Positions 10,043 through 63,538 are shown, numbered from the stretch's first letter. The stretch is DNA of 64,000 nt from Terriglobia bacterium (GCA_965247425.1 OZ252023.1:1242917-1306916); one strand, 5' to 3'. Notes: generated by a model from the letters alone, not told the origin. Made by a program: numbers and translations.

Positions 10043-10058
10043 GAGTAAGCTAGCCGAG

Positions 10059-18051: not shown

Positions 18052-18075
18052 TAATAAATGGAGGAAGAGAAGCCA

Positions 18076-42347: not shown

Positions 42348-42435
42348 GCCCAACCACGGAATTCGAAATTGTTCCTTACCGGATTCAAGGACTCGAGCCG
42401 GAGATGTGGAGGTCGACCCGGCCGAACAACCTCGA

Positions 42436-42535
42436 AATCCGCACCCTGTCCGAACCCAAACAGCAAAGCCCGGGATCGCTCCTTTCTGCTTCTAAACGGG
42501 GCTGACGAGATTCGAACTCGCGACCTCCGGCCTGA
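42436..42535 (-). repeat. tRNA 3'-end-like repeat, copy 1 (T-arm GCGAG-TTCGAAT-CTCGT plus acceptor strand CAGCCCC-G on the minus strand); no 5' half found
   Basis: Minus-strand gcgagttcgaatctcgtcagccccg at + coordinates 42497-42521. The roughly 100-bp block is repeated at 59614-59705. No complementary acceptor strand (cagcccc on +) was found within 400 nt, so this is not a complete tRNA or tmRNA. Confidence 0.55.
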
Positions 42536-42825
42536 CCGTTCCCGGTCAATCCCGCGTTTTCAATAGTTTCATGGATTGGAGTGGCCATCTGCCACTCATA
42601 CGCAAAGTAAGTCTTTTATCAAGCCATTGACTGCGAAAAGCCTAGCCTAGGATTCGTGCAGTTGCATCTTCACCCGGACCGATCGAACAGTAGGTGACAC
42701 TCGGGGTATCGAGGTCTCTGCTCCCTAATTCATAATTCAAGCTTGATGGAACAATTCCTGACGCGATCTCGTTGCTTTGGAGTCGGTCGGAGGAAGCGGA
42801 TGCTATCGCCAGGAGGAATCGTGAC

Positions 42826-45248
42826 ATGAGCTTGGGTCAAGACGTCCGGTACGGCTTACGAATGCTGGCTCGAAAACCGGGTTTCACGGCAGTTGCTGTG
42901 ATCACTCTGGCGTTGGGCATCGGGGCCAACACGGCCACGTTCAGTGTCGCGAACACCTTGTTGCTGGGCACCTCGCGGCAGGTCGAAGATCCGGCGGAGC
43001 TCACCCGCATGCATATCACATGGGCGAGCGGGCTCGAGTTCGGTTCGTTTTCCCACCCGGATTTCATCGACCTCCAGGAAAGGAACGACGTCCTGACCGG
43101 CTTGATAGCGTCGTCTATCCGGCCCTTCCATCTCTCGGATGGCAATAGCAATGATCGGATTACTGGATCGATCGTTTCCGGCAACTACTTCGACGTGCTC
43201 GGCGTCGCGCCCGCTCCAGGTCGGGGGTTCCTGCCAGAGGAGTACGAGACCGCGGGAACTCACCCGGTAGCCGTCCTTAGCCATGGTCTCTGGCAACGAC
43301 GTTTCGGGGCAGACCCCGGCGTCATCGGTGGCACCGTGTCCTTGAACAACTACTCATTCACCGTCATCGGCGTTGCCCCGCGCGGTTTCGCAGGCGTGAA
43401 CGCCGGGATCGCCACGGACCTATGGGTGACGCTGAAGATGCAGGACATCCTGTTGCCCGGCCCTTCGCTGATGGAAGCACGCGGGAGTCACTGGCTGAAT
43501 TTTGTGATCGGCCGGTTGAAACCGGGAGTCACCCGAGCCCAGGCCGAAGGCTCTCTGAACGGCATCATGGCGCGGTTGATCGAAGAGTATCCGAACACCA
43601 ACGAAGGCAAGAGTGTCACGCTCTACCCCGAGAGTGGCCTGCCTCCTTTCATTCGTCCGGCGTTTGTCGGTTTCATGGGTCTGATGTTCGCGGTGGTCGG
43701 ATTCGTTCTCCTGCTGGCCTGCGCCAACGTGGCCGGCCTGATGCTGGCACGGCTGTCCGCCAGGCGGAAGGAAATCGGCGTCAGACTGTCGTTGGGGGCA
43801 AGCCGGGCTCGACTGATCCATCAGTTGCTCGCCGAGACTATTCCCCTGTGCCTCCTGGCCGGCGGTGCCGGATTAGCCGTCGCCCTGGGATTGCTCCGGG
43901 CGATCCGCACTATGGTTCCATCAGCGAGCTTTCCGATCGACACGAACATCTCGCTGGACTGGTCGGTGCTGGTCTTTACTCTCTCCGCATCCATACTGAC
44001 GGGTCTGCTGTTCGGACTGATGCCGGCCCTTCAGGCGACCCGCCGCGACCTGGTGTCTTCGCTGAAGGATTCCGGGGCGTCGTTGGAAGGGAAGAGATCA
44101 CGAACTCGGCAAGTCCTGGTTGTCGGCCAGGTCGCAATATCGGTCGTCCTGCTGGTTCTGGCAGGCCTCTCTGTAGGCAGCCTGAGCAATGCCCGAAACC
44201 TCGATCCCGGCTTTGCTCCGGACAACATGCTGACGGCATCGATCGAGCTGGGCCTTCAGGGCTACGACGAAACGGGAGGAAGGGCGTTTCGCCAGTCCCT
44301 GATCGAACGGGTCGAACGTGTCCCGGGAGTAGCTGCGGTGGGACTCACCAACACGATTCCGCTGACTTTCTCGACCTCGGATCGTGGTGTCATCCCGGAA
44401 GGCTTCGAGGTCGCCGAAGGGTCCGACAGCCCCAACGTTCTCGAGGCATTCGTCGATAAGGGTTACTTCGATGCGATGGGCATCACGATGCTGGCGGGCC
44501 GAGCCTTCGACCGAAGGGACAACAAGAATGGTCCTGCAACGTTGATCATCAACGAAGCGTTTGCCGAGCGATTCTGGCCGGGCGAAGACCCGATCGGAAA
44601 GTACGTGGAGACCTTGCGCGACAATCATGTCGTCGTCGGCATGGTCCGCACAGGAAAATACCGGACCCTGGGCGAAGCCCCCGAACCCTACATGTATTTC
44701 TCTGCGTACCAGCAATACAGAACTAATACGGTTCTGATGGTCCGAACGGCATCGGATCCGTCATCTCTTGCCGGGTCATTGCGTGAAGAGATTCGGGTAC
44801 TGGATCGCACGTTGCCGGTTTCCGGCCTCACGACGATGCACGAAGCGATGGGCTTCGCCCTGTTCCCTGCCCAGATGGCGGCAAGGGCGGTTTCAGGATT
44901 CGCTCTCCTGGCACTCATCCTCGCCGCGGTCGGTCTGTACGGACTGATTTCTTACTCGGTCAATCAGGGGATGCGCGACATCGCGATCCGTATGGCCATC
45001 GGGGCCCGTCCCCGGGATGTCCTCGGGCGGGTGTTGCGGGGCGGCATGACGTTGACTCTGGCAGGACTTGGTGTCGGATTGGCCGGGGGAGCAGCCCTGG
45101 CCATGGTTGCCGGCACCCTGATGTACGGCGTGGGTGCGACCCAGATCGGCCCATACCTGGCAGCGGTCGCATCGCTGTCGTGGCCACCTACGTTCCAGCC
45201 CGCCGGGCCTCGCGGATCGATCCTATGGCAATCCTAAGAGGCGAATAG
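42826..45248 (+). CDS. ADOP-family (MacB/FtsX-like) permease; 1-nt frameshift near the 3' end
   Basis: SD AGGAGG then ATG 42826. [40 protein letters not shown]. The as-given ORF ends at 45237 with the atypical ...SLSWPPTFQPAGPRGSILWQS. Shifting frame at about nt 45170 (ca versus caa) restores the canonical ...IAVVATYVPARRASRIDPMAILRGE* ending at 45248. Confidence 0.75.
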
Positions 45249-45610
45249 GCGGAGCAGCTTTCCGCGACGAAGCGGGAAGCAGCATGAATGAGATCAGGAG
45301 GGATCTCAAGATCCTTTCGTTTGACTCTTCTTTGGCTGATCAGCTGCCGCGGCTCGCTCCCTCATTGCTTTCCGAAGTTCGCGGATATGTTCTCTCATCC
45401 GAAACTTTGCCTTTCGCAGACGGTTATGACGCGACTTATCACCATTTCTTTGGGACATTGTTACCTCACAAGACAAAATAGGGTCGGGGCCACATTTCTA
45501 CTAACTGATCATAATACACGACTTGACCGAAATGTGCGCCCGTCCCTGTTTTCTGGCGTGGTGATCCGGGGAATACAAGACCGCATGGCTCGGGCTTCCG
45601 AGACCCCCTA

Positions 45611-45772
45611 GGAGCCTGCGCGGCAGAAGGGATCGTAGCGAGAAAGTGGAGAATCGAGGCCAGATTTTCTCGATTTTGAGGCGAATAGTGGTTCTATGTA
45701 ACGAAAAATCGGGGAAATATGGACCGATTATGCCGCTTTCGCAGTAGATCTCTTCTGCCGCGCAGGCTCCTA
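45611..45772. repeat. MITE-like element family 2 (perfect 24-26-bp terminal inverted repeats (ta)GGAGCCTGCGCGGCAGAAGGGATC / GATCTCTTCTGCCGCGCAGGCTCC(ta))
   Basis: Inverted repeats at 45611-45634 and 45747-45770 seen directly. The right end abuts the glgC stop codon. Confidence 0.7.
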
Positions 45773-47002
45773 ATCCAGGACGGTTCCCTTGGCGATCACG
45801 ACGATGCCGTCGTCGGAAATGGTGAAACCGCGCTCGAGGTCTTCCTTGTAGTCGATGCCAATCTCGTAGCTTTCCGGGATGCGGACGTTCTTGTCGATCA
45901 CGGCGCGGTGCACTACTGCGTGGCGGCCGACCTCGACATTGTCGAACAGCACGCAGTCCTCGACCTCGGAGAAGGAGTTGAGCCGCACCCGCGGTCCCAG
46001 GATCGACCGCCGCGCCGTGCCACCGGAGACGACCACGCCTCCCGCCACTAGCGACGCCAGGGCCCGGCCGCGGCGTTCCCCTTCCTCGTGGACGAACTTG
46101 GCCGGCGGATGGGGGTACTGCCAGGTGAGGATCGGCCACTCGTAGTTGTAAAGGTCGAAGACCGGCTGGGCAGCCACCAGGTCCATCGACGCTTGAAAGT
46201 AAGCGTCGATCGTCCCGACATCGCGCCAGTAGTCGCGTTCGCGTTCGACCTGACCCGGCACCTCGTTCTTCCCTAAGTCGTAGACCCAGGCGTCGCCCGA
46301 GTCGACGAGAGTCGGGATGATGTTCGCGCCCATGTCGTGCTTCGTATCCTCGGCGGCGTCCGCGGTCACCACTTCGCGCAGAATGTCGGTGCTGAAGACA
46401 TAGTTGCCCATCGAGGCGAAGGCCCGCGTCGGATCGCCGGGCAACGGCGTCGGCGATTCGGGCTTCTCGACAAAGGAGCGCATGCGCCCGTCCGCGGTGG
46501 CTTCGATGATGCCGAAGGAACTGGCTTCCTCAATCGGTACCGGAATGCCGGCGACTGTGACCCCGGCACCGCTCTCGATGTGCTGGAGGACCATCGGCTC
46601 GACGTCCATGCGGTAGATGTGGTCGGCGCCGAAGACCGCGACGTATTCGGGCTGCTCGTCGTCGATGATGTTGAGGTTCTGGTAGACGGCGTCGGCCGAG
46701 CCGGCAAACCAGTGGCGTCCGGTGCGCATCTGCGCCGGCACCGTGACGACATAGTAGCCGAGCAGTGGCGAGAGCCTCCAGGTCTTCTCCATGTGGAGGT
46801 CGAGGCTGTGGCTCCGATACTGGGTCAAGACTACGATGCGCCGTATGCCCGAGTTGACAAGGTTCGAAAGCGCGAAGTCGACGAGGCGATACAGGCCGCC
46901 AAAAGGCACGGCCGGTTTGGCCCGCTCCTGGGTGAGCGGCAACAGCCGACTGCCCTCACCGCCGGCCAGCACCATGGCGAGAATTTTCTCGCGTAAGGGC
47001 AT
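45770..47002 (-). CDS. glgC: Glucose-1-phosphate adenylyltransferase
   Basis: MPLREKILAMVLAGGEGSRLLPLTQERAKPAVPFGG...; 410 aa. Confidence 0.9.
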   Translation of the reverse strand: MPLREKILAMVLAGGEGSRLLPLTQERAKPAVPFGGLYRLVDFALSNLVNSGIRRIVVLTQYRSHSLDLHMEKTWRLSPLLGYYVVTVPAQMRTGRHWFAGSADAVYQNLNIIDDEQPEYVAVFGADHIYRMDVEPMVLQHIESGAGVTVAGIPVPIEEASSFGIIEATADGRMRSFVEKPESPTPLPGDPTRAFASMGNYVFSTDILREVVTADAAEDTKHDMGANIIPTLVDSGDAWVYDLGKNEVPGQVERERDYWRDVGTIDAYFQASMDLVAAQPVFDLYNYEWPILTWQYPHPPAKFVHEEGERRGRALASLVAGGVVVSGGTARRSILGPRVRLNSFSEVEDCVLFDNVEVGRHAVVHRAVIDKNVRIPESYEIGIDYKEDLERGFTISDDGIVVIAKGTVLD

Positions 47003-47130
47003 TCCTCTTCCTCTACGGTTGTCGGTATCCGTCCCGGGGATCCGGTTTCATAACCCCCGGAATGCTATCATACGCCCGTATCCACCGACTGACGAATCCA
47101 TCACCTAGCGAGTTGTGTCGCACTGAGGCA

Positions 47131-49206
47131 ATGAGACCGAAGCCCTTCAAAATCCGGTACGGCGAGCGGTTACCCGCGGGTGCAACAGGCGGCGTGGGCG
47201 GCGTCAATTTCTCCGTCTTCAGCCGGCACGCGAGCGCGATGTCCCTGCTACTGTATTCCGACGACCAGTCTCTCGATCCGATTCAGGTGATCGACCTGGA
47301 CCCTGTCGGAAACCGCACACACTTCTTCTGGCATGTCTTTGTCGAAGGAGCAGGTCCCGGCCTGTACTTTACCTGGCGGGCGGGCGGACCCGGTGACACT
47401 CGAGCGACCGGGTTTCGCTTTGACGCCCGACACGAGCTTCTGGATCCATGGGCCAGGGTCGTGAGCGACGCGCTGTGGAATCGGAGTCGAGCAACAGCCG
47501 GTGGAAGTGGCCGGAATGCCATTCGTGGCAAAGTCGACGACGACGCCTATGACTGGGAGGGGGACCTGACGGTGGACCACCCCGTCGAGGACAGCATAAT
47601 CTACGAAGTGCATGTGGGTGGTTTCACCAGCCATCCATCGGCCCGCGTCCGAAACCCGGGAACCTTCCACGCTCTGATCGACAAAATCCCCTACCTCGAA
47701 CGGTTGGGCATCACCGACGTCGAGTTGATGCCCGTCATGGCTTTCGATCGACAGGATGTGCCACCCGCCGCAGCGGCAAAAGGCCTCTCGAACTTCTGGG
47801 GTTACAGCCCCTACGGATTTTTCGCCCTCCATCCCGCCTACTGTTCCACCGCGGACGGTCGAAAGGAATTCCGCGACATGGTGAAAGCGCTGCACCGCGC
47901 CGGCATCGGTGTGATCCTGGACGTGGTGTTCAACCACACGGCTGAAGGGGGGGAGGATGGTCCCTCCATCCATTTCAAAGGCCTCGCCAACGAAACCTTC
48001 TATCACCTCGATTCCGGTGACCGGAGGAAGTATCGTGATTTCACGGGATGCGGCAACACGGTCAATTGCAATCATCCCGTGGTCACGCATTTTCTGTTGT
48101 CGTGTCTGGAATACTGGGTCCGGGAGATGCACGTGGACGGCTTCCGCTTCGATCTGGCGAGTGTGCTGGGACGGGGTGAGGACGGGGAGCCCATGTACCA
48201 TGCGCCGCTGATCTGGGCGATCGAGTTCTCCGAGGTACTATCCCACACCAAGCTGATCGCCGAGGCTTGGGACGCCGGAGGGCTTTACCAGGTCGGGGAC
48301 TTCCCTGGATTTCGCTTCATGGAATGGAATGGGCAATACCGGGACACTGTGCGGCGTGTCGTGCGTGGCGAGAACGGACTGATGAACGAACTCGCCTCCC
48401 GAGTGAGCGGGAGCAGCGATTACCACAAAGAAAAAGGCAAGCTTCCAACCAACAGCATCAACTATGTGACCTGCCATGATGGATTCACGCTCTACGACCT
48501 GGTCAGCTACGACAGGAAGCACAATCAGAACAACGGGGAAGACAATAGGGACGGACCCGCCGAATCCTTCAGTTGGAATTGTGGGCACGAGGGTCCCACC
48601 GACGATCCGCAAATCGAGTCGCTGCGTGGCCGTCAAGCACGGAACCATATGGCCATACTGCTCTTGAGCCTCGGCTTGCCGATGTTGCTGGCTGGCGATG
48701 AGGTTCTGAGGACCCAGCGTGGCAACAACAACTGTTACTGCCAGGATAACGAGTTGAGCTGGTTCGATTGGACGCCCACCGACAGTAACGCCGGCATGCT
48801 TCGCTTCACCCGGGAAATGATCGCCCTGCGCAAGCGGCACGCGTCTTTGCGACGGAGCCGATTCCTTACCGGTCGGCCGACTGCGGGAAGAGCCGGAATG
48901 CCGGACATCGAATGGCACGGAGCTCGACTCGGCGACCCGGAATGGGACAATCCCGAATCACGGATGCTGGCCTACACACTTGCCGGGATAGAACAGGACG
49001 AACCGGACATTTACGTGATGCTCAATATGTCACCCGAAGGCAGAGAGATGGCAATTCCCGCAGTCCCAGGGCGGAAATGGCATCGGGCCGTGGACACGTC
49101 GCGGATCTCGCCTGAGGACATCGTCGTGCCAGCGGAGCAGACGCCGTTAGGCTCGCATGCCTACTACGTCGCCGGGAGAACGGTCGCGGTCCTCGAATCG
49201 CGCTAG
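47131..49206 (+). CDS. glgX: Glycogen debranching enzyme (isoamylase, GH13)
   Basis: ...GVNFSVFSRHA..., GH13 catalytic blocks (GVILDVVFNHT, GFRFDLASVL, EAWD). ATG 47131 was chosen; the track ORF starts at 47062. Confidence 0.85.
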   Translation: MRPKPFKIRYGERLPAGATGGVGGVNFSVFSRHASAMSLLLYSDDQSLDPIQVIDLDPVGNRTHFFWHVFVEGAGPGLYFTWRAGGPGDTRATGFRFDARHELLDPWARVVSDALWNRSRATAGGSGRNAIRGKVDDDAYDWEGDLTVDHPVEDSIIYEVHVGGFTSHPSARVRNPGTFHALIDKIPYLERLGITDVELMPVMAFDRQDVPPAAAAKGLSNFWGYSPYGFFALHPAYCSTADGRKEFRDMVKALHRAGIGVILDVVFNHTAEGGEDGPSIHFKGLANETFYHLDSGDRRKYRDFTGCGNTVNCNHPVVTHFLLSCLEYWVREMHVDGFRFDLASVLGRGEDGEPMYHAPLIWAIEFSEVLSHTKLIAEAWDAGGLYQVGDFPGFRFMEWNGQYRDTVRRVVRGENGLMNELASRVSGSSDYHKEKGKLPTNSINYVTCHDGFTLYDLVSYDRKHNQNNGEDNRDGPAESFSWNCGHEGPTDDPQIESLRGRQARNHMAILLLSLGLPMLLAGDEVLRTQRGNNNCYCQDNELSWFDWTPTDSNAGMLRFTREMIALRKRHASLRRSRFLTGRPTAGRAGMPDIEWHGARLGDPEWDNPESRMLAYTLAGIEQDEPDIYVMLNMSPEGREMAIPAVPGRKWHRAVDTSRISPEDIVVPAEQTPLGSHAYYVAGRTVAVLESR

Positions 49207-49520
49207 CAGCCCGTGGTGGAAGTCTGTAGGGTCGCGCGCAGGGGTATTCGGGGCTCAGGCGCGAAATGAGGAGCGGAACGATGCATAGTCCTCGTGACCG
49301 ACGAATGACAAAGCCTGTGGCCCAAAGACCCCTGCGCCCTTCGGGTTACGACGGCATGGGGCCAGCTGCGGCGTTGGCACTCCTAGATCGATGGCGAGCA
49401 TCGCCGTCTTCGATGGGAACCATCGCCGTCTTCGATGGGCACATCGACGTCGTCGTGCCGCCTTGCATCTAGCCCCATGGCGCTCGTAACGCGACCCTAC
49501 CGACTTCCACCACGGGCTGC
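49206..49520. repeat. MITE-like element family 1, copy B (315 bp; contains an internal roughly 20-bp tandem duplication)
   Basis: Terminal inverted repeats gcagcccgtggtggaagtctgtagggtcgcg / cgcgaccctaccgacttccaccacgggctgc. It begins at the G of the glgX stop codon and ends 13 nt before the glgB stop. Confidence 0.8.
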
Positions 49521-49532
49521 TTGGAGCCTCGA

Positions 49533-51710
49533 TCATACTTTTTCCAGGATAATGCCGGCCAGGGGAGGTAGCGTCACCACAATCGAGTAGGGCTGATCCA
49601 TCGCGGGTTGGTCTTCCGCGGGCATCTCCGACGGGTTCCCCACGTCTGTCCCTCCGTAGAAACGGGAGTCGGAGTTGAAGATTTCCCGGTAGGCGCCCTT
49701 TTCTGGCACGCCAATCCGGTACCCGTGTCGCGGGATTGGCGTGAAGTTCAGGGCCACGCTCACACGATTCTCGTCCGCGCGGCGCAGGTAAATCAAGACC
49801 GAGTTATCCGCATCTTCCCAGTGTAACCACTGGAAACCCCGGGCGGCAAAATCGTACCGGAAGAGCGCCGGCCGGCTTCGGTATAGACCGTTGAGATCCT
49901 GGACGAGCCTATGAACGCCTCGGTGTGCGGGCACATCCAGCAGATGCCAAGGGGTGGTCTCGGCGCTGTTCCACTCGTCGGGCTGTGCCAACTCCGACCC
50001 CATAAAGAGAAGCTTCTTCCCCGGGTAGGTCCACTGAAAAGTATAGGTCAAGCGCAGGTTGGCGAAACGCTGCCAGTCGTCCCCAGGCATCTTGCCCAGG
50101 AGCGACTGCTTCATGTGCACGACTTCGTCGTGAGACAGCGGGAGCACAAAGTTTTCGCTGAAGGCATACATCGGGCCGAAAGTGATCTGCTGATGATGCT
50201 GCCGGCGATCGATCGGGTCTTTTGACATGTACAACAGCGTGTCGTGCATCCACCCCATGTTCCATTTCATACTGAAGCCGAGCCCGCCGGCGTGGGTCGG
50301 CTTCGTCACCCCCGGCCACGCCGTCGACTCCTCGGCGATGGTGAAGCTGCCGGGGACCTGCCCGTGTGTCACCTCGTTCAGCTGTTTTAAGAAAGCGATC
50401 GCCTCCAGGTTCTCGTTCCCGCCGTGGACATTCGGCATCCACTCGCCTTCCTGGCGGGAGTAATCCAGATACAACATGGCTGAGACGGCGTCCACGCGAA
50501 GCCCGTCGAAGTGAAAGTCCTCGATCCAGTACAAGGCACTGGAGATGAGGAAACTTCTCACTTCGTTCCTGCCGTGGTTGAAGATCAGCGTACCCCATTC
50601 TTTATGCTCGCCCTTCCGTGGATCCGCGTGCTCGAACAGGGCGCTCCCGTCGAAGCGGGCGAGACCGTGCTCGTCGCGCGGAAAGTGTCCCGGGACCCAG
50701 TCGAGGATCACACCGATTCCGTTGCGATGCAGCGCGTCGATGAGATGGCGGAGGTCGTCGGGTTCGCCAAAACGACGCGTGGGTGCGAAGTAACCCGTCG
50801 TCTGGTAACCCCACGATTCGTCAAGAGGATGCTCGGTCACCGGCAGCAACTCGACGTGGGTAAACCCGAGTTCGCGCACATAAGGGACCAGCTGCTCGGC
50901 CATCTCCCGGTAGGTCAGGACTCCTCCAGCCGAAGTTCGTCTCCAGGAACCCAGATGTACTTCATAGATCGACATCGCTCGGTGCATCCAATCCTGCCGC
51001 ACCCGCTCGTCGATCCAGGCCGTGTCGCCCCACGCGTAAGTTGTGCTTCGAGTCGTGACGGATGCCGTTGCCGGCCGATACTCGTGCTTTTGGGCGAACG
51101 GATCGAACTTGATCCGAACCGATCCGGTGGACCGGTTGCGGATCTCGTACTTGTAGAGTTGTTCGGGGGCAAGCCCTGGGATGAACAGTTCCCAGACTCC
51201 CGAGCGGTTCCGAACCCGCATCGGATGACAACGGCCGTCCCAGTTGTTGAAGTCCCCGATGACGCTCACGCGTTCGGATTCAGGCGCCCAGACCGCAAAA
51301 AGGAAGCCGTCCACACCATCGACCGCTTGTCCATGTGCCCCAAGGAACCGATGCGCGCGAAAGTGATCCCCGCGACCGAACGACTCCAGGTCCGCGTCCG
51401 AGAGCTGCGGGCAGAAGGCGTAGGGGTCGAAGCGTTCGATCACCTTTCCGTCGATCCGCCATCGGATACGGTACGGGAGCGGGAGGGATTCTTCCGCGCC
51501 GCGCCACTCGAACAGATCGCCGTTCTCGAGGCGCCGCATCGGCTCGCCCGTTTCAACGATTTCGGCCTCGTGGACTCCGGGGAGGAACGCGCGAACGACG
51601 ACGCCGTCATCTCCCAATGGGTGTCGTCCCAACACCCGGAAAGGATCGTCGAGGCGACCCTCCAGGAGACGCGCTTTGTCGGACGGATCGATTTCGGTAC
51701 CGCTCTTCAT
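49533..51710 (-). CDS. glgB: 1,4-alpha-glucan branching enzyme
   Basis: 725 aa with a GH13_9 pattern ([23 protein letters not shown], ...). Confidence 0.9.
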
Positions 51711-51739
51711 AACCTCAACATGCTATCAAAATAGGCCTA

Positions 51740-52011
51740 GCAGCCCGTGGTGGAAGTCTGTAGGGTCGCGTTATGAGCGCCATGGGGCTAGATGCCAGGC
51801 GCCACGACGAAGTCGATGCTCTTCATCGATCTAGGAGTGGCAACGCCGCAGCTGGCCCCATGCCGTCGTAACCCGTAGGGCGCAGGGGTCTTCGGGCCAC
51901 AGGCTTTGTCATTCGTCGGTCACTATGACAGAGCATCGTTCCGCTCCTCATTTCGCGCCTGAGACCCGAATACCCCTGCGCGCGACCCTACAGACTTCCA
52001 CCACGGGCTGC
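51740..52011. repeat. MITE-like element family 1, copy C (272 bp), in inverted orientation relative to copy B
   Basis: Reverse complement of copy B with a few substitutions. Together with copy B it flanks glgB. Confidence 0.8.
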
Positions 52012-52014
52012 TGG

Positions 52015-52102
52015 GAGTCTGCGCGGCAGAAGGGATCTACTCCAAATTTGCATGTTAGCAGCAACAGCTGCAAATGTTAGATTCAGACCCGCGCAGGCTC
52101 CT
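52015..52102. repeat. Partial or degenerate copy of MITE-like family 2 (left arm gagtctgcgcggcagaagggatc, right arm cccgcgcaggctcct)
   Basis: Directly adjacent to family-1 copy C, giving nested or juxtaposed elements. Confidence 0.5.
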
Positions 52103-52110
52103 GTCAGACT

Positions 52111-53613
52111 GTGGTCGGGAATGGGGGTGAGGGTATCGAACAAGAAAGACATCATGTTCTCGACCGAAGACGGGCCGGCGTCCTGCTCCACCCCACTTCG
52201 CTCCCCGGCCCTTTCGATCATGGCGTACTTGGACCCGACGCGCGCCGATTCATCGACTTTCTCGGTTCAGCTGGATTCACCGTCTGGCAGACGCTGCCGC
52301 TCGGCCCCGTCGACGTTACTCTTTCGCCCTATCGGGTGAAATCCTCCCGTGCCGGGAACCCCCGTTTGATCGCGCTGGATCTGCCCGACGATGCCGCCTG
52401 GCGTCCTTCTGCCGCGGCGTTGGACGGGACAAGGAACTGGGATTCCCGTCGGAAACTGATCCGGCAGTCCTGCGATCAGTTCTGCCGGCTGGCCTCGGAG
52501 GCGGATCGACGGCGCTTCGCATCGTTCATCAGGTCCGAAAGGGCATGGCTGCGACCGTTCGCGCTCTTCGAGGCGCTCCAAGAGCGGTTCGATGGCCGCG
52601 CCTGGTGGGAATGGCCCGAGCGCTTGCGGAACCGTGATACGGAGGCCCTCCGGCGGGTCAGGATCGAGGAGCGTCGAACCATCCGTCACATCGCATTCGA
52701 ACAGTTTGTGTTCGCGAACGAGTGGCAGGCATTGAAGAAGTATGCCAACGACAGGGGCATTTCTCTGTTCGGCGACCTGCCCATCTACATCGACCTGGAC
52801 AGCGTTGACGTCTGGTGGAAGCGTGAGTTGTTCTTCATCGAGGAAAACGGCAGACCGATCCGGGTTGCCGGTGTACCTCCCGATTACTTCAGCGAGGATG
52901 GGCAACTCTGGGGAAACCCGATCTATGACTGGGAACGCATGCAGTCGGACGGGTTTCGCTGGTGGATCGATCGAGTCCGCGCTGAACTCGATCGGTTCGA
53001 TCTGGTTCGAATCGACCATTTCCGTGCGCTGGAAGCCTACTGGGAAATACCGGGAGGGGCGACAACGGCGAAAGACGGCCGGTGGACGGCGGGGCCCGGC
53101 GCCGATCTCCTCGAAGCGCTCAGCAAAGAGGTCGCGATAGACCGTCTTGTCGCGGAAGATCTGGGCACCGTGACACCCGCGGTGTACGCACTACGGGACC
53201 GATTCGGCATCCCCGGTGTGCTGGTGTTGCAGTTCGCGTTCGATGGCTCTCGGGACAATCCATTTCTCCCATCGAACCATTGTGTGCACACCGTCGTCTA
53301 TTCGGGGACTCACGACAATGACACGACTGTAGGTTGGTATGCCTCCCTCGACGAGAGGACTCGGGAGTTTGCGAACCATCAACTGCAGTGTCGGTCCGAA
53401 GAGATTCCGCGTGCCCTGATTCGCGCTGTTCTGGAGTCACCGGCGAAGCTGGCCATCCTGCCAATGCAGGATCTATTGGAAATCGGGTCCCAACACCGCA
53501 TGAATACGCCCGGAACAACCACAGGAAACTGGGCGTGGCGCTTCAGCTGGGAGGCACCGACCTCGTCACACGTCCGTCGGTACCGCGATCTGCTCGAACG
53601 CTTTGGGCGCTAG
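52111..53613 (+). CDS. malQ: 4-alpha-glucanotransferase (amylomaltase, GH77)
   Basis: GVLLHPTSLPG N-terminus and GH77 blocks (IDHFRALEAYWEIPGG). GTG 52111 start is uncertain. Confidence 0.85.
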   Translation: MVGNGGEGIEQERHHVLDRRRAGVLLHPTSLPGPFDHGVLGPDARRFIDFLGSAGFTVWQTLPLGPVDVTLSPYRVKSSRAGNPRLIALDLPDDAAWRPSAAALDGTRNWDSRRKLIRQSCDQFCRLASEADRRRFASFIRSERAWLRPFALFEALQERFDGRAWWEWPERLRNRDTEALRRVRIEERRTIRHIAFEQFVFANEWQALKKYANDRGISLFGDLPIYIDLDSVDVWWKRELFFIEENGRPIRVAGVPPDYFSEDGQLWGNPIYDWERMQSDGFRWWIDRVRAELDRFDLVRIDHFRALEAYWEIPGGATTAKDGRWTAGPGADLLEALSKEVAIDRLVAEDLGTVTPAVYALRDRFGIPGVLVLQFAFDGSRDNPFLPSNHCVHTVVYSGTHDNDTTVGWYASLDERTREFANHQLQCRSEEIPRALIRAVLESPAKLAILPMQDLLEIGSQHRMNTPGTTTGNWAWRFSWEAPTSSHVRRYRDLLERFGR

Positions 53614-53628
53614 TGTCCCCGCCAGAGA

Positions 53629-55188
53629 TTACACGCCCGAACCGTCCCTGCTGGTAATTGCGGTCTCAAATACCTTGAGATAGCGCCGTGCTGAGGCTGC
53701 CCAGCTGAAGTCCTCGTTCATGCCGTTCCTCATGAGCCGCTGCCAATGGGTCTTGTCGCGCCAGAGTGCGATAGCTCGATCGATCGCTGCCCGGAATTCG
53801 TCCGGATCGTAGCGGGTAAACCGGAATCCCGTGCCGGTACCTGCGTCTGGATCGAAATCCTCAACGGTGTCGGCCAATCCTCCTGTAGCACGCACAACTG
53901 GCGCTGTCCCATAACGGAGAGCATACATCTGGCTAAGTCCACACGGTTCGTAACGTGACGGCATCAGGAAGATGTCGGCGCCAGCGACGATCCGATGGGC
54001 GAGGTCGTCGTCAAACGTGAACCTGACGGCGGCTTTGTCGGGATGACCCCGGACGATGCTCTCGATGGACTGCTCGGTTGCGTGGTCTCCGGTCCCGAGC
54101 AGGAGGAAATAGAGCGGTTCGGCCAGCAGTTTGTCCAGAATCGGGAGGAGAAGGTCGAATCCCTTCTGGTAGTCAATGCGCGAGATCATCGCCAGTACGG
54201 GATTCTCATCACGACTGTCACCAAATCCAAATTCACGGAGCAGGCTTCTGCGGTCGTTCTGTTTGCCGGAAAGGTCGTGGGCACTGTATCTCGAAGCAAT
54301 CCGAGGGTCGGTCCCGGGGTTCCAGACACGATCATCGATGCCATTGACGATGCCGAATAGGTCCCCGCGCCGAGCGGTGATGATCGAATCGAGACCACAG
54401 CCGTACTCTTCGGTCTGGATCTCTTCGGCGTACGTGGGGCTGACCACCGTGAGTGCGTCGGCGGCAAGGATTCCGGTCTTCATCAAGTTGATCTGCCCGA
54501 AATGTTCGAGCCGGCCGCCGGGCTGGACTTCCTGCTGGTCCAATCCAACCGTCGGCCATTGATCTGATGGGAACACTCCCTGATACGCCAGGTTGTGAAG
54601 AGTCAGGACAGTCGCCGCCTTCCGGAGCGAACCCGATGGACGGTACAGGGCGTCCAGGAAAATCGGAACGAGCGCGGTCTGGTGCTCATGACAATGGATG
54701 ATGTCCAGGTCCGGACAGTCGCGGGCCAGAAGCGTCAGCGCGGCGTGCTGGAAGAACACCCACCGGTCGAGTTGATCGTGATAATCCTGCCCTGTCGAAG
54801 GATCGACATAAACGCTTGCCCGGGGAAAATACTCCCCGTCCTCGACGAGAAACACGCGCACACCCGATCCCGGTAGACGGACCGTGTGCACCTGGGCGAC
54901 TCGGGTTCCTTCTCCACAGGGCACTGTCAGGGGAGGGACGGATTCGATAGGGCCAAACCGGTCACGCTCCAGGTTGCCGAAACGGGGAATCACGACCTCA
55001 ACCCGAGCCCCCTGCGCATCGAACTCGAGCGGCAGTGACCCCACGACGTCCGCCAGGCCGCCAACCTTGACGAATGGAAAGCATTCAATTGAGATGAGGG
55101 CGACGTGAAGCGATCTGGTCATGGGTGCTGGCTGTCCATAGTCGACCCCGCTCGAATCCATGGCTGGAGTCGATTTGAAATCGAACAC
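53629..55188 (-). CDS. glgA: Glycogen synthase (ADP-glucose type)
   Basis: KVGGLADVVGSLP motif and a GT5 pattern. 519 aa. Confidence 0.9.
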   Translation of the reverse strand: MFDFKSTPAMDSSGVDYGQPAPMTRSLHVALISIECFPFVKVGGLADVVGSLPLEFDAQGARVEVVIPRFGNLERDRFGPIESVPPLTVPCGEGTRVAQVHTVRLPGSGVRVFLVEDGEYFPRASVYVDPSTGQDYHDQLDRWVFFQHAALTLLARDCPDLDIIHCHEHQTALVPIFLDALYRPSGSLRKAATVLTLHNLAYQGVFPSDQWPTVGLDQQEVQPGGRLEHFGQINLMKTGILAADALTVVSPTYAEEIQTEEYGCGLDSIITARRGDLFGIVNGIDDRVWNPGTDPRIASRYSAHDLSGKQNDRRSLLREFGFGDSRDENPVLAMISRIDYQKGFDLLLPILDKLLAEPLYFLLLGTGDHATEQSIESIVRGHPDKAAVRFTFDDDLAHRIVAGADIFLMPSRYEPCGLSQMYALRYGTAPVVRATGGLADTVEDFDPDAGTGTGFRFTRYDPDEFRAAIDRAIALWRDKTHWQRLMRNGMNEDFSWAASARRYLKVFETAITSRDGSGV

Positions 55189-55309
55189 GTAAAATGGAAC
55201 ACTGACGTTCGACTACCGTCGACTATTGGATCATTTGTGATTCTGTTTTGAAAGTCGAGAAAGGAACTTGGTATAAATTCATGAGTCCGATTCACGTCTG
55301 GATCCATCG

Positions 55310-57487
55310 TTGGAGGACATGGTAGAAACTCGAGCCCAGGAACATCTCATCACGTCCACGGGTCAAAAGCTCTGGTCGTTGGCTCGTAATCTCTGGTGGA
55401 GCTGGGACGACGGTGCGACCAGCCTGTTCCGGGACCTCGATCCAGAACGATGGCGCGAAGTCGGACAGAATCCGATTAAGCTCTTGTCTCGAATCCCCTC
55501 GAGGGGGCTGGAGAGCCGGGCGAGCGAGTTGGTCCTCCACAGCCGGATCAACGACACCTACCGCCGTTTCCAGGAGTATCTCAAAGAGAGGGAGACCTGG
55601 GGGACGACCCACGCCGGTGTGCTGGGGCGCCAGCCTGTGGCCTACTTTGCCTCGGAATTCGGACTTCACGAGTCGATCCCGATCTATTCAGGCGGCTTGG
55701 GTGTTCTGGCCGGAGACCACATCAAGAGCGCGTCGGATCTCGACGTCCCCCTGATCGGGATCGGGCTGTTCTATAGCCATGGATACTTCCGGCAGCGACT
55801 CGACACCTCGGGATTGCAGCAGGAGGAATACATCAGGCTCGAACCATCCCAATTGCCCCTAGAACCCGTCCTGGGCCGGAACCTGGAACGGCTGATCGTC
55901 TCGATCGACACCCGAACCGGCGTCATCCATGCGAAGGTCTGGCGACTCGCGGTCGGCCGTCGCCTTCTCCTGCTCCTGGATTCCGATGTTGAAGGCAACG
56001 CCCCCGAGGACCGGGAGCTGACAGCCCGACTCTACGGTGGCGACCGCCGGGTCCGGATCCGGCAAGAACTCCTGCTTGGCGTCGGCGGGGTTCGGGCATT
56101 GAGTGCGATGGGAATCTCGCCGGGCGCATACCACCTGAACGAAGGTCACAGTGCGTTTGCTGTTTTCGATGCGATTCGTGAACGCATGATCGAGGACGGC
56201 CACGATTTGGCCGGCGCGATACGGCGAGTGAGCCGGACCGTCGTTTTCACCACCCACACGTCGGTACCCGCGGGACATGATCGGTTCAGCCCGGAGCTGG
56301 TGGAGGAACACCTTGGGCCCATGCGCGATGCGCTCGGTCTTTCTCGGAGAGACTTCCTGGCGTTCGGGCGTGTCGATCCGAGTGACGACCATGAGGAATT
56401 CTGTATGACCGTACTCGCCCTGAAGCTGTCCCGCAGGGCCAACGCTGTCTCGTCCCTGCACGGCGAAGTTTCACGAGCGATGTGGACTCCGTTGTGGCCC
56501 GGCCGGTCCGAGGATGAGATACCAATCGGGCATATCACCAACGGCGTTCACGGGCCGTCCTGGTTGGCGCCACAGATGGTCCGGCTTTACGGACGCCACC
56601 TGGACGGGGAACAGAATTGGATGCAGCAGCGTGGCGAAGCGAAAACCTGGAGAAATATCGAGAACATCGACGACGGGGAACTGTGGGAAACGCACCTCGC
56701 TCTGAAGTCCCGGCTTCTCGAGTTCGCCCGCCAGCGCTCGATGCGGCAGGCAGAGCGGAGGGGCGCATCGACCGGGGAATTAGAGCGGCTGTCCCGGGTT
56801 TTGAGCCCGGATGCATTGACGATCGGCTTCGCGCGTCGATTCGCGACGTACAAGAGGGCCGAACTCATTCTGCGCCACATGGATCGGTTCGTCGAACTCG
56901 TGAACGATTCCCGGCGCCCGGTCCAATTCATTTTCGCGGGAAAGGCCCATCCATTGGACGAGCCTGGCAAGAGAGTTCTTCAGCGAATCGCCGAACTGAC
57001 CCGTGATTCCAGACTGGCCGACCGCATCGTCTTCATCGAGGACTACGACATCAACGTCGGGCGGTTCCTGGTTCAGGGAGTCGATGTCTGGCTCAACACA
57101 CCGCGCAGGCCGCTGGAAGCTTCAGGAACGAGCGGTCAGAAAGTAGTCTTGAATGGCGGCCTGAACCTGTCCGTGCTCGATGGCTGGTGGGTGGAAGCCT
57201 ATGACGGTTCCAACGGATTCGCTATCGGGCCCGACCGCGCACACGTCGATCCGGAACTGCACGACAGGCGCGACAGTGAAGACCTGTATCGGGTTTTGAA
57301 CGAGGAAGTGATCCCGTTGTATTACCAGCGCAACGCCGACGGTTTGCCTCTGGGATGGATCCAGCGCATGAAGCGATCGATTCGTACCCTGGGATGGCGC
57401 TTTAACGCCAACCGGATGGTCATGGATTACACGACATACTGTTATGTGCCAGCCGCCGGTGGGAGATCGAGCAACATGTCGCGGTGA
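55310..57487 (+). CDS. glgP: Alpha-glucan (glycogen/maltodextrin) phosphorylase, GT35
   Basis: 725 aa with a GT35 DUF3417-type N-terminus and blocks such as EGHSAFAVFD (all spelled EGHSA here). Confidence 0.85.
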   Translation: MEDMVETRAQEHLITSTGQKLWSLARNLWWSWDDGATSLFRDLDPERWREVGQNPIKLLSRIPSRGLESRASELVLHSRINDTYRRFQEYLKERETWGTTHAGVLGRQPVAYFASEFGLHESIPIYSGGLGVLAGDHIKSASDLDVPLIGIGLFYSHGYFRQRLDTSGLQQEEYIRLEPSQLPLEPVLGRNLERLIVSIDTRTGVIHAKVWRLAVGRRLLLLLDSDVEGNAPEDRELTARLYGGDRRVRIRQELLLGVGGVRALSAMGISPGAYHLNEGHSAFAVFDAIRERMIEDGHDLAGAIRRVSRTVVFTTHTSVPAGHDRFSPELVEEHLGPMRDALGLSRRDFLAFGRVDPSDDHEEFCMTVLALKLSRRANAVSSLHGEVSRAMWTPLWPGRSEDEIPIGHITNGVHGPSWLAPQMVRLYGRHLDGEQNWMQQRGEAKTWRNIENIDDGELWETHLALKSRLLEFARQRSMRQAERRGASTGELERLSRVLSPDALTIGFARRFATYKRAELILRHMDRFVELVNDSRRPVQFIFAGKAHPLDEPGKRVLQRIAELTRDSRLADRIVFIEDYDINVGRFLVQGVDVWLNTPRRPLEASGTSGQKVVLNGGLNLSVLDGWWVEAYDGSNGFAIGPDRAHVDPELHDRRDSEDLYRVLNEEVIPLYYQRNADGLPLGWIQRMKRSIRTLGWRFNANRMVMDYTTYCYVPAAGGRSSNMSR

Positions 57488-57546
57488 CGAGTGACGAAGT
57501 CGACCGAAGGTTAGCGGTGAGTTATTCAGGAGCGGGCCCCAAGAAC

Positions 57547-57641
57547 TCGACGCAGAGACGCAGATCGGAGGGAGATTGTCGGAGACGATTAGCCGGGAAC
57601 AAGAAAATCAGATCTCTGCGTCTCTGCGCCTTTGCGTCGAA
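57547..57641. repeat. REP/MITE-like palindromic element, family 3 variant (arms tcgacgcagagacgcagatc / gatctctgcgtctctgcgcctttgcgtcgaa)
   Basis: Located between the glgP stop and the pckA stop. The right arm is nearly identical to the right arms of copies 1 and 2 of family 3. Confidence 0.55.
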
Positions 57642-57716
57642 AATCCCTCTCTTACAATGCGAAGTTATTCTTGAGCGTCTGGGAATCGGTGTGGGTTCGC
57701 ACCCGATTCTCGTGGT

Positions 57717-59300
57717 TTATATCCTTGGCCCAGCCGACCTTACCGCTTCGCCCACGCCCTGCGCATAGCTGGCAAAGTTGTCTCGGAAAAGAGTAGCGAG
57801 CTTTTTCGCAGTCCTGTCGAAATCGGCGGGATCGGTCCAGGTCTTACGGGGAATCAGGACCTCGTCGGGAACGCCCGGGCAGGCGGTGACAACGGAGTAC
57901 CCGAAAACCGGATCCTCTTCAACCCTCGAGTCGGCTAACGCTCCCGAATGGATGGCATCGATGATCGCCCGGGTGAACGCAAGCTTGATCCGCGATCCGG
58001 TGCCGTAGGCGCCGCCACTCCAGCCCGTGTTGACGAGCCACACGTTGGCCTGATGCGTGCGGAGTTTCTCTGCGAGCAGTTCAGCATATTTCCCTGGATG
58101 CCATACGAGGAAGGGACCCGCAAAGCACGGTGAAAACGTAGCCTGCGGTTCGGTTACCCCCACTTCCGTTCCCGCAACCTTCGCGGTATAGCCGCTGATG
58201 AAGTGGTACATCGCCTGTTCCGGAGTCAGGCGACCGACGGGCGGCAGGACACCGAATGCGTCGCACGTCAGGAAGATGACATCCGAGGGGTGGCCCGCGA
58301 CGCATGGGATCCGGGCATTCTGAATGAACTCGATCGGGTAGGCGCCTCGTGTGTTTTCAGTAATCGAGATGTCGCTGAAATTGACAGCGTGGTCGGTTTC
58401 GTCGTACGTGACGTTCTCCAGCACGGCCCCAAAACGGAGAGCACTGAAGATGTCCGGCTCGAGCTCCGGGGTCAGGTAGATGGCTTTTGCGTAGCAGCCG
58501 CCCTCGATGTTGAAGATGCCGTTGTCGGTCCAGCAGTGCTCGTCGTCGCCAATCAGGTTTCGTTTGGGGTCCGCCGACAGCGTGGTCTTTCCCGTTCCGG
58601 ACAGACCAAACAGCACGGATGAACGTCCGGTCTCTTTGTCCGAGGTTGCAGAACAATGCATCGAAAGCACGCCGCGCTTGGGCATGAAGTAATTCATCAG
58701 GGTCAGGACCCCCTTCTTCATTTCTCCCGCGTACTCGGTGCCGAGGATCACCATCTCGCGGCTTTCGAGATTGACGTCGACGCTGGTTTTAGACGTCATA
58801 CCGGTCGTGTGCCGGTTTGCCGGGAATCGACCGGCGTTGAAGATGACGGCGTCTGGTTCGCCGAAGTCCTGGAGTTCTTCGCGTGTGGGACGAATCAGCA
58901 TCGTGTACATGAACAGTGCGTGATACGGTCGCGTGCATATGATCCGAACTTTCATTCGGTAATCCAGGTCCCACCCGGCAAACGCGTCCACCACGTAGAG
59001 CAGGCTTCGGGTGTTCAGATAGTCGGTGGCCCGTTCCCGATTCACGCCAAATGTAGCTTCCGGTATCTCAATGTTCACGGGTCCCCACCAGACGTCGTCC
59101 TCGGAGTCCGGATGTCGGACGACATGTTTGTCCCTGGGCGACCTGCCCGTCTTTACCCCGGAGTAGGCAATCAGTGCACCGGAACTGGCGATCACGGAGT
59201 CCTTTTCCATCCGAAGAGCGTCTTGATAGAGGATCGGCGGCGTCTGATTGCGCCGAACGTCGGTCACGGTGATGCCGTATTGACTCAGATCTAGTGCCAT
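57717..59300 (-). CDS. pckA: Phosphoenolpyruvate carboxykinase (ATP)
   Basis: Kinase-1a FGLSGTGKTTLS and a PEPCK-ATP pattern throughout. SD AGAGGAG then ATG at 59300; the track ORF extends to 59360. Confidence 0.9.
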   Translation of the reverse strand: MALDLSQYGITVTDVRRNQTPPILYQDALRMEKDSVIASSGALIAYSGVKTGRSPRDKHVVRHPDSEDDVWWGPVNIEIPEATFGVNRERATDYLNTRSLLYVVDAFAGWDLDYRMKVRIICTRPYHALFMYTMLIRPTREELQDFGEPDAVIFNAGRFPANRHTTGMTSKTSVDVNLESREMVILGTEYAGEMKKGVLTLMNYFMPKRGVLSMHCSATSDKETGRSSVLFGLSGTGKTTLSADPKRNLIGDDEHCWTDNGIFNIEGGCYAKAIYLTPELEPDIFSALRFGAVLENVTYDETDHAVNFSDISITENTRGAYPIEFIQNARIPCVAGHPSDVIFLTCDAFGVLPPVGRLTPEQAMYHFISGYTAKVAGTEVGVTEPQATFSPCFAGPFLVWHPGKYAELLAEKLRTHQANVWLVNTGWSGGAYGTGSRIKLAFTRAIIDAIHSGALADSRVEEDPVFGYSVVTACPGVPDEVLIPRKTWTDPADFDRTAKKLATLFRDNFASYAQGVGEAVRSAGPRI

Positions 59301-59613
59301 TGTTCTCCTCTTGGTTTCCAACCGCGCGGTTCCGACTGAACCGGCCCCAAACACGGACAACTACAGTCCGGGAAGTCGTGCGCCGCGGACCGGCCGACCG
59401 TGCTTCTCGGTCGCCCTGTTTTGGGGAAAACTGGTCAATTGCTACGGCAGCGAACTAGATACTACGGCAGCAAACGGTTGGGGTCAACGAACTCGCGGTC
59501 GACCGAGAAATGAGGTGTGTCCCGGTTCGCGCCGAAGAGCCAGGCTGTTGATCCTCGAACCAGATCACTGGCGAGCACAAATCCGGTGGACTCAAAGATT
59601 CGATCCCCCACCC

Positions 59614-59705
59614 AATCCGCACCACACAGCAAAGCCCGGAATCGCTCCCGGGCTTTCTTCTAAACGGGGCCGATGAGATTCGAACTCGCGACCCTCCAGT
59701 CCGGC
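59614..59705 (-). repeat. tRNA 3'-end-like repeat, copy 2 (degenerate T-stem), with an adjacent perfect 9-bp-stem hairpin (59631-59656)
   Basis: Minus-strand gcgagttcgaatctcatcggccccg at + coordinates 59665-59689. Direct repeat of copy 1 (about 85% over roughly 90 bp). It lies 210 bp upstream of the tyrosine recombinase. Confidence 0.55.
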
Positions 59706-59915
59706 CCATCGTTTCGAAACACGCAGTCGTCACCGCCTGTGGCGTCATGTCCTGCTGGCGCTACTTGCCATTCCACTTCTCCGAGTAGGCGGTTAGAACG
59801 AAGCGGCCTACGCCTGCGGCTTGGCGCGCGGACGCTTCGCGTGGCTTGACTGCGACGTAAAGCTAAATGAGGTGAGAGAGCAAAAGTAAAATGTGGGTCA
59901 TAAGGAGGCCACCCT

Positions 59916-61997: not shown

Positions 61998-62436
61998 CGC
62001 ACGAAGAACAATCCCAACACACGGGCCTATTCACACAGGCCGACGCACCGGTGCGTTTACAGACAGAAGATGGACCCCCCAACGGATTTTTCGCCCCCCT
62101 ATGTCACTTGAAAGTCTCTTTTTCTCTCCATTGTCGGCACCCAGGCTCGACCCCTCATCCTGCCAGAGCCCCAACTTCAGCTCGATATCGACCCCTCGGA
62201 GCCTACCTTCTCCATAGCCCTACCATGCCTGCCTGATTCCGGCCCCTTCCTTCAAACTTCGTTATCGGAATTGCCCGGTCCGTGGGTTTTCGCCCGATCC
62301 TGCAACCGGGTCGACGCCGGGCAATTCCGATCAACACTAGCGGTTAACCAACCGACTGGTTGTTTGATTGACCCCAACTCCCGCCTTTCGTATCATCTAC
62401 GGAGTTTTTCACGGACCGCCCAAGAGACACTAAACG

Positions 62437-63407: not shown

Positions 63408-63538
63408 CGCGCCTCTTCCGGCGTCATGCCCTTCGAGACGTTCTCTTCCTCCTGCATCTCCAGATGGAAACGCAGTTCATCACTCATCTCCTTTTCGAGG
63501 CCGCGTCTTCGAAAGACACCGAACAGACGCGAGGTCAT
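63224..63538 (-). pseudogene. N-terminal fragment of an ADOP/MacB-like permease (cytoplasmic prefix region only)
   Basis: MTSRLFGVFRRRGLEKEMSDELRFHLEMQEEENVSKGMTPEEARHAAIRSFGGIEQMKEEYR matches the permease-prefix found on many ADOP proteins. No transmembrane region follows. Confidence 0.55.

Follow-up and report, generated by a model that had tools for sequence, protein, structure and literature searches.

Probable displaced attR-type relics of tRNA-Asp(GTC) around a glycogen and pckA gene cluster in an acidobacterial chromosome

We found two fossil 3′ fragments of a tRNA-Asp(GTC) gene, together with terminators, in a 64,000-nucleotide (nt) stretch of DNA from a Terriglobia bacterium (GCA_965247425.1 OZ252023.1:1242917-1306916; this whole stretch is termed the window, and positions are counted from its first letter). 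Both copies are relics of tRNA-Asp(GTC), and the account that we consider probable is that they are displaced attR-type fragments left by at least two old insertions. Features of this type are known already; in this uncultured acidobacterial group they show tRNA-Asp to be a hot spot for insertions and a point at which rearrangements between strains break. For annotation, the fragments are best labeled as tRNA-Asp 3′ relics (attR-like) and not as genes, and the tyrosine recombinase gene that lies beside one of them as part of an IS91-family insertion sequence (IS).

Two truncated copies of a tRNA gene

Copy 1 (42381-42536) and copy 2 (59586-59705) both lie on the minus strand and share the reading GGTC-GCGAG-TTCGAAT-CTC(G/A)T-C(A/G)GCCCC-G-TTTAGAAG, which is followed by a hairpin and then by more shared sequence. 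In a repeat search of the window the pair was listed twice (D14, 37 nt, 95%; D17, 27 nt, 93%) with a spacing of 17166-17168, and BLAST aligned copy 1 with copy 2 at E = 9e-18, the identity between them outside the T-arm being only ~82%. With the intact unit of a sister genome as the BLAST query (see below), these were the only two matches in the window, there being no third copy. The identity, boundaries and orientation of the parts can be read directly from the alignments, as follows:

42381-42496, minus strand: copy 1 downstream flank, a degenerate terminator and then ~100 nt with homology to the sequence that follows the intact gene in L017 (by comparison)
42497-42536, minus strand: copy 1 tRNA part, tRNA-Asp(GTC) nt 34-73, from the anticodon GTC to the discriminator G73, with no CCA (BLAST to L002 and L017, alignment, Rfam 16.8 bits)
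42537-42641, minus strand: orphan segment of 105 nt, AT-richer, on the inner side of copy 1 (comparison of relatives; no match elsewhere)
59586-59664, minus strand: copy 2 downstream flank with an intact terminator hairpin at 59631-59656 (by comparison)
59665-59705, minus strand: copy 2 tRNA part, tRNA-Asp nt ~39-73 (BLAST and alignment)
59706-59799, no strand assigned: orphan segment, ~94 nt, separating copy 2 from the left end of the IS91-family element (sole match in the near-identical contig L001)

The homology of copy 1 begins exactly at the anticodon base G34, and its tRNA part differs from the intact gene by two substitutions (C38G and G67A); its terminator has lost the 5′ arm, and the 3′ arm alone is left at 42465-42474. 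In copy 2 the anticodon-stem strand is followed by 6 inserted nt (CTGGAG), and the T-stem contains a mismatch (G64A). The unit shared by the copies comprises the 3′ part of the tRNA, the terminator hairpin and ~60-125 nt of downstream flank. The two orphan segments on the inner sides bear no relation to each other.

Neither copy has the complete cloverleaf of a functional tRNA gene: the 5′ acceptor strand, the D arm and the 5′ strand of the anticodon stem are missing from both. ARAGORN predicted neither tRNA nor tmRNA genes in the window (0 of each), and Rfam gave 0 matches in it at the gathering score. Under permissive settings, copy 1 matched the Rfam tRNA model at 16.8 bits (E = 1; gathering score 29), and copy 2 yielded no match to it. 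The 5′-half motif of tRNA-Asp is absent throughout the window, even with up to 3 mismatches allowed. When the promoter and 5′ half were compared with the sequence upstream of the copies, the observed scores were reached by 176 of 500 and by all 500 of 500 shuffles; accordingly, the candidate that copy 1 is a full-length pseudogene with internal deletions, proposed from a pseudo-acceptor GGGAUUG drawn by cmscan and a promoter match CTATTGAAA, was not supported, its score being no better than those of shuffles. The folding z-scores of the copies (-0.5 to -0.7) are not significant.

These results bear out most of what an earlier note, made from the sequence alone, had described: two direct copies 17 kb apart with the quoted minus-strand reading, a perfect 9-bp hairpin in copy 2 (now placed at 59631-59656), and the absence of a 5′ acceptor strand, from which it had concluded that these are not intact genes. 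It had proposed ARAGORN as a check, and the run on the window uncovered no intact gene that had been missed there. It had also observed that the shared sequence extends past the tRNA end, and this extension proved to be the own terminator and flank of the gene.

The parent gene and its native locus

We scanned one genome per species for the T-arm followed by the acceptor strand and TTTAGAAG, and recovered a single match, in a Solibacteraceae metagenome-assembled genome (L002), in which an intact tRNA-Asp(GTC) has this motif as its 3′ end. Downstream of this gene lie the same terminator hairpin and flank as in the window copies, with alignments to window 42536-42429 (117 nt, 84.6%) and 59693-59606 (96 nt, 84.4%). 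Intact tRNA-Asp(GTC) genes with the same T-arm, acceptor strand, TTTAGA and hairpin were found in L002, L017, L019-L021, L024 and L025. The gene of the sister lineage (L017:4522-4597) scores 71.4 bits with Rfam, and the sister genomes, which are near-complete, are 94-97% identical to the window at the nucleotide level. Using this sister unit (the tRNA plus 143 nt) as the query against the window, we obtained copy 1 as unit positions 36-202 (E = 3e-41, 168 nt, 81.5%) and copy 2 as unit positions 47-141 (E = 2e-24, 95 nt, 83%). The intact parent that the earlier note had asked for, matching the repeat and in the same orientation, is therefore tRNA-Asp(GTC), as found in the sister genomes.

In L017, tRNA-Asp sits downstream of a MazG-ribF-Glrx-PIG-L-M48 gene series, and the order from MazG to M48 recurs in L002 with 80% identity over 4.3 kb; as this order is common to L002 and the sister lineage, the native tRNA-Asp locus adjoins M48, and the source of the window is a Solibacteraceae-like acidobacterium. 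Consistent with this assignment are its permeases of the ADOP family and the acidobacterial matches of its IS91 transposase. In the sister genomes the gene neighbors the M48 protease gene and lies 5.4 kb beyond pckA, co-oriented with the copies, in the order M48 - tRNA-Asp - [amidohydrolase, IS110, DUF4399; 5.4 kb] - pckA - glgP - glgA - malQ - glgB - glgX - glgC - ADOP - [relic flank] - S1. This layout is collinear and co-oriented with the window copies, and the sister itself is without copy 2. The 3′ match to an intact tDNA, co-oriented and on the same replicon, that Islander uses as a criterion is seen in the sister genomes; here the gene falls outside the window, and extrapolation from the sister genomes would place the live tRNA-Asp of the source genome correspondingly.

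The sequence after the terminator of tRNA-Asp differs among L002, L017 and L025. The last of these is 92% identical to the sister across the M48-tRNA region, shows compensatory changes in the terminator hairpin of tRNA-Asp, and encodes a phage-type integrase (Phage_integrase, 66 bits), the gene for which is convergent with tRNA-Asp and lies downstream of it at a distance of 381 nt. This integrase has the generic catalytic motif alone in common with the IS91-associated recombinase of the window. Judging from these loci, tRNA-Asp is visibly an insertion hot spot in the clade. Pattern scans of genomes and metagenomes for further fragment arrays found none and returned only the intact tRNA-Asp of L002, L024 and L025. 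Likewise, pattern scans of metagenome and viral contigs and BLAST against phage and plasmid collections revealed no attP-bearing element. The lone IMG/VR match, L028, was rejected as such: this AT-rich phage encodes a complete tRNA-Asp(GTC) of its own (899-974), between unrelated flanks. Its tRNA-Asp has the same T-arm and CAGCCCC acceptor strand as copy 1, which we judged coincidental.

Directly past the terminator of tRNA-Asp, we also observed two TGCGGAT direct repeats 11 nt apart (L017:4640-4665, L002:4955-4980), and the pair is still discernible in both window copies (42435-42460 and 59606-59625). The region of these repeats is 92.5% identical between L002 and L017, versus 80% in the adjacent genes. 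At the equivalent position of the integrase-bearing site of L025 (~770-800), GGTTGCCA occurs twice, 10 nt apart. These post-terminator direct repeats may be protein-binding sites, perhaps of the arm type.

Independent loss of the copies in close relatives

The loss of the tRNA-derived parts in relatives is directly observed at both loci. At the copy 1 locus of the sister genomes L003-L007 the flank is kept, and window 42489-42641 (153 nt), that is, the tRNA part of copy 1 with the first 8 nt of its downstream flank and the orphan segment, is precisely missing. The window state is the ancestral one and the sister has suffered the deletion, because the homology to the tRNA unit runs unbroken over the left junction (TTTAGAAG|CAG, as in L002). 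In L005 an IS of the DDE_Tnp_1_4 type (L005:11570-13327) sits exactly at the junction of the 153-nt deletion; members of the same IS family also separate glgA from malQ in L017 and, in L023, immediately follow the IS91 transposase gene.

At the copy 2 locus, strain B (L016 and L027) matches window 59562-59639 at 97%, up to a break within the hairpin beyond which other genes follow, and the synteny of L017, which has no copy 2, ends at 59578/59579. Since the tRNA-derived parts were lost independently at both loci in close relatives, the copies are, on this comparative evidence, neutral relics. In the outgroup L026, whose PckA is 93% identical, an amidase gene and miaE flank pckA, and glg genes and a relic are both lacking; L026 has no tRNA-Asp near pckA and is hence uninformative on the question of an empty site.

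Origin of the fragments by insertion into tRNA-Asp

We posit that site-specific (Campbell-type) recombination into the anticodon-loop region of tRNA-Asp would have brought in a new 3′ half with the incoming DNA, and that the old 3′ half would have been shoved outward by the insertion. Two or more such insertions at the same gene would generate a direct-repeat series of the form live tRNA-Asp ... copy 2 ... copy 1. The inserted elements would since have decayed or been replaced, and the IS91-family insertion would have arrived later. The orientation of the copies and their order relative to the live gene fit this displacement, and the inner-side arms, being orphan and mutually unrelated, fit the arms of different, mostly deleted elements; the 105-nt orphan at 42537-42641 may be the last remnant of one such inserted element. 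The Islander criterion names the anticodon loop and the T-loop/acceptor junction as known crossover sublocations; the boundary of copy 1 falls in the first of these, and that of copy 2 at about nt 39. The anticodon loop is the attP crossover class for 2083 of the 3919 islands mapped by Islander, which delimits islands, tandem arrays included, by a "regenerated gene plus displaced fragment" (PMC4383910), and partial tRNA genes from such insertions are common (PMC9897764). The earlier note had taken the copies for 3′-end fragments of a tRNA gene, and the start of copy 1 in the anticodon loop is indeed typical of displaced att-type fragments.

The window copies resemble the displaced fragments of Islander and TIGER (PMC4383910, PMC9897764) in being co-oriented, serial, non-functional 3′ parts of a tRNA with an anticodon-loop boundary, which are overlooked or mis-scored by tRNA finders. 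They differ from them in that no island-type integrase is left, the interval between the copies is native and core-like, and the repeat reaches 60-125 nt past the tRNA. Several observations weigh against an origin by insertion. The repeated unit continues for 60-125 nt after the tRNA, more than most att identity blocks do, and the flank of copy 1 matches that of the live gene over 126 nt. The boundary of copy 2 is blurred by decay through its 6-nt insertion, and the intact tRNA-Asp is known from relatives, outside the window. No integrase is encoded within 42.5-59.7 kb, and none other than the Xer/integron-like recombinase of the IS91 unit lies between or beside the copies. The 17-kb interval has native GC content and tetranucleotide usage and is retained by every close relative, including those that have lost the repeats, and no empty site was seen among the close relatives. 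Islander's own filters would reject the interval as an island, and the intact gene lies outside the window.

The alternative that we take most seriously, though we hold it to be unlikely, is local duplication of tRNA-Asp with its terminator, by ordinary recombination or slipped replication, into two or three paralogues that later lost their 5′ parts through deletions or ISs, with no integrase involved. Such a history would readily explain why the repeat takes in the terminator together with as much as 126 nt of flank in common with the live gene and why no integrase is present, and it would suit genomes full of deletion-causing ISs and miniature inverted-repeat transposable elements (MITEs), as exemplified by the IS of L005 exactly at the copy 1 deletion junction. 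The copies are also similar to tRNA pseudogenes from duplication in being decaying, non-transcribed-looking gene copies with a terminator. However, under duplication two independent truncations must both have stopped within or next to the anticodon loop, and one of the two exactly at G34, and no trace of a 5′ half or promoter is left; the copies are 3′ parts only, which start at or beside the anticodon loop, and stand 17 kb apart with unrelated genes between them rather than in tandem; and a relative (L025) does have an integrase at tRNA-Asp.

The IS91-family element beside copy 2

The proposed displacement of tRNA-Asp fragments by insertion does not involve the recombinase that adjoins copy 2. 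This gene belongs to a two-gene IS of the following make-up:

59800-62338 (approximate ends), plus strand: IS91-family insertion sequence, ~2.5 kb, two genes (comparison with other copies)
59916-60798, plus strand: tyrosine recombinase gene, Xer/integron-like (domain search)
60768-61997, plus strand: IS91-family HUH-Y2 transposase gene, Zn_Tnp_IS91 plus Y2_Tnp (PF14319 and PF04986; NF033538 at 444.7 bits, cut-off 125)

The recombinase start codon (59916) and the end of copy 2 (59705) are 211 nt apart. Its product has an N-terminal SAM-like domain and a catalytic domain, interrupted by a +1 frameshift at ~60528 (60524-60530; A5 versus A4 in the intact gene of L022), and its C-terminus carries on in the frame of the open reading frame (ORF) 60379-60798. 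A 693-amino-acid ORF (59916-61997) is consequently a spurious recombinase-transposase fusion that results from the frameshift, which is also present in the independent near-identical contig L001.

Other copies of the IS were found in L022 (97% nucleotide identity, with a second diverged copy at the same locus) and L023 (82%). In L022 and L023 an intact 293-amino-acid recombinase gene overlaps the transposase gene, in differing contexts. The DNA common to the copies starts at window 59778-59800 and ends at ~62338, and homology to strain B is back at 62339. All three copies have GAAC directly at the left end, and near the right end there is a hairpin (62265-62330). No tRNA motif lies near the other IS copies (L022 twice, L023). 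The element displays the traits of an IS91-family IS with a recombinase, namely an HUH-Y2 transposase with its Zn domain and a recombinase upstream in the same repeated unit. Tyrosine recombinases of an integron-like subgroup have been described as IS91 components (bioRxiv 10.1101/542381), and "IS91 - XerD recombinase" gene couples are recorded in 15 phyla (PMC9208149). Like other IS91 elements with an upstream recombinase, that of the window combines a Zn-binding HUH-Y2 transposase with an overlapping ~293-amino-acid recombinase and occurs in multiple contexts; it differs in that its recombinase is frameshifted and in that it is a neighbor of copy 2 and no part of the repeat. Acidobacterial matches to the IS91 transposase were also observed.

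In strain B the flank of copy 2 occupies the same site although the IS is missing there, and the IS therefore neither brought nor made the copy 2 fragment. From these comparisons, the recombinase-transposase pair is an IS91-family insertion unrelated to the repeats, and probably a later one. We rejected an association of the tRNA fragment with IS91 copies, as there is none among the other copies, and likewise the idea that copy 2 was split by the IS with its 5′ half beyond, as the window has no 5′-half motif and the left end of the IS is ~95 nt away. The ribosome-binding site and start codon of the recombinase are overlapped by a 13-bp hairpin (59893-59924; GTGGGTCATAGGGTGGCCTCCTTATGACCCAC, minus strand), kept in L022 and L023, which may serve in translational control or as a recombination site of the IS.

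These data bear directly on two further explanations. In the first, the window would hold a live or recent 17-kb island, with the copies as attL and attR and the adjacent recombinase moving the glg, pckA and ADOP genes. The direct repeats 17.2 kb apart and the start of a tyrosine recombinase 211 nt from copy 2 are what such an island would show. However, neither repeat is in an intact gene, the repeats are only ~82% identical outside the T-arm, and the recombinase lies outside the interval, is frameshifted and belongs to an IS91-family element found elsewhere without the repeat; the native composition of the interval and its conservation in relatives lacking the repeats speak likewise. This explanation is already contradicted, and we regard it as very improbable. 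The earlier note had tentatively offered the copies as attL and attR of one element, a proposal that we discard, as neither is part of an intact gene and the 17 kb is kept where the repeats are lost; a single element behind both copies was also rejected, the inner-side arms being orphan and unrelated. As for the tyrosine recombinase and IS91 transposase to which it had pointed beside copy 2, the adjacency is real, but it does not serve as evidence for an island, the recombinase being the first gene of an IS whose other copies have no tRNA piece.

IS91/ISCR elements mobilize neighboring DNA from the 5′ side of the transposase. The second explanation accordingly invokes one-ended, rolling-circle (ISCR-like) transposition, by which an IS91 element would have taken a piece of tRNA-Asp to the pckA site, and copy 2 conforms to it in lying upstream of the IS, ~95 nt from its end on the transposase 5′ side. 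This explanation, slightly more improbable still, is contradicted too: in L016 and L027 the flank of copy 2 is found in the same place but no IS91 element is, and the three other IS copies have no tRNA piece; moreover, it leaves copy 1 unexplained.

Least probable of all is a function for the copies as a tRNA-like RNA or in regulation (for instance as a mini-tRNA, as part of a tmRNA or as a terminator module under selection), for which one might adduce the 57-nt pseudo-cloverleaf that cmscan draws at copy 1, with 6 of 7 acceptor-stem pairs, and the intact terminator-like stem of the copy 2 hairpin, but which is opposed by the score of copy 1 below the gathering score (E = 1), the lack of a tRNA match and the T-stem mismatch in copy 2, the non-significant fold z-scores, the deletion of the tRNA parts in close relatives, and a G3:C70 pair and discriminator G that rule out tmRNA-type alanylation. 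A tmRNA, in one or two pieces, was assessed by the G3:U70 alanine identity pair, a discriminator A, a tag reading frame and detection by ARAGORN or Rfam, and rejected: CAGCCCC/CGGCCCC implies G3:C70 with discriminator G, ARAGORN and Rfam were negative, and tRNA-Asp was identified as the parent.

The 17 kb between the copies

The genes between the copies form the following block:

42772-59360, no strand assigned: ADOP permease, glgC, glgX-like isoamylase, glgB, malQ, glgA, glgP-like phosphorylase, pckA and three MITE insertions (domain search)

This interval is not a recognizable island today and is fixed chromosomal DNA, and the caution of the earlier note that it looks like core metabolism is upheld by both its conservation and its native composition. 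Measured in the sister genomes, a block of ~22-24 kb reaches from the live tRNA-Asp to copy 1, and it has the complete glycogen pathway, pckA and the ADOP permease. It is conceivable, though we rate it as doubtful, that this block is an old "metabolic island" that entered via tRNA-Asp in a Solibacteraceae-like acidobacterial lineage and has since become fixed and compositionally ameliorated. The planctomycetal PckA homologues and the different neighborhood of pckA in the outgroup would fit with such an origin. Were the glg-pckA block to have arrived through tRNA-Asp, it would mean that central carbon metabolism was gained as an island. As for pckA itself (57717-59300), all named homologues among the top 120 PckA matches are planctomycetal (Pirellulales and others, 72-80% identity), and most of the matches are unnamed. 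In the acidobacterial context, these homologues may reflect horizontal transfer of pckA.

Among the small insertions is a 164-nt MITE-like element at 45608-45772 with 26-nt terminal inverted repeats (TAGGAGCCTGCGCGGCAGAAGGGATC). It is placed differently in relatives (L016:9601-9764, beside pckA; L017:11689-11853; L003:2757-2939), and these differing positions indicate that it is mobile now or was so recently. A second MITE-like element of ~280-320 nt, with 32-35-nt terminal inverted repeats, is found at 49205-49524, 51736-52015 and 17780-18053. Two inverted copies of it flank glgB in a composite-transposon-like arrangement, and the copy between glgX and glgB is missing from the sister genomes. 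Elsewhere in the window, there is a 276-nt element with 32-nt terminal inverted repeats (9769-10044), and the 6-12 kb region holds direct repeats of 180-300 nt that are 80-92% identical (6338-7335 and 9597-11997). These elements of the 6-12 kb region are probably additional copies of MITEs or ISs.

The region beyond copy 2

Past copy 2, the window, strain B and the sister each have a different sequence, and that of the window is atypical in tetranucleotide usage (correlation of 0.66-0.75, versus 0.88-0.94 among the other segments). The right end of the window (62437-64000; r = 0.66-0.75 against the remainder) consists of a series of gene fragments, which include the N-terminal 162 amino acids of a Ser/Thr kinase with full-length paralogues in L022 and L027 and, on the minus strand at 63224-63538, the "permease prefix" of another ADOP-type gene. 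The near-identical strain L001 has an extra IS of ~1.9 kb (DUF6788 and DDE_Tnp_1; L001:4374-6281) inserted at window 62351-62359 with a 9-bp target duplication, and the end of another copy of this IS lies at window 2400-2652.

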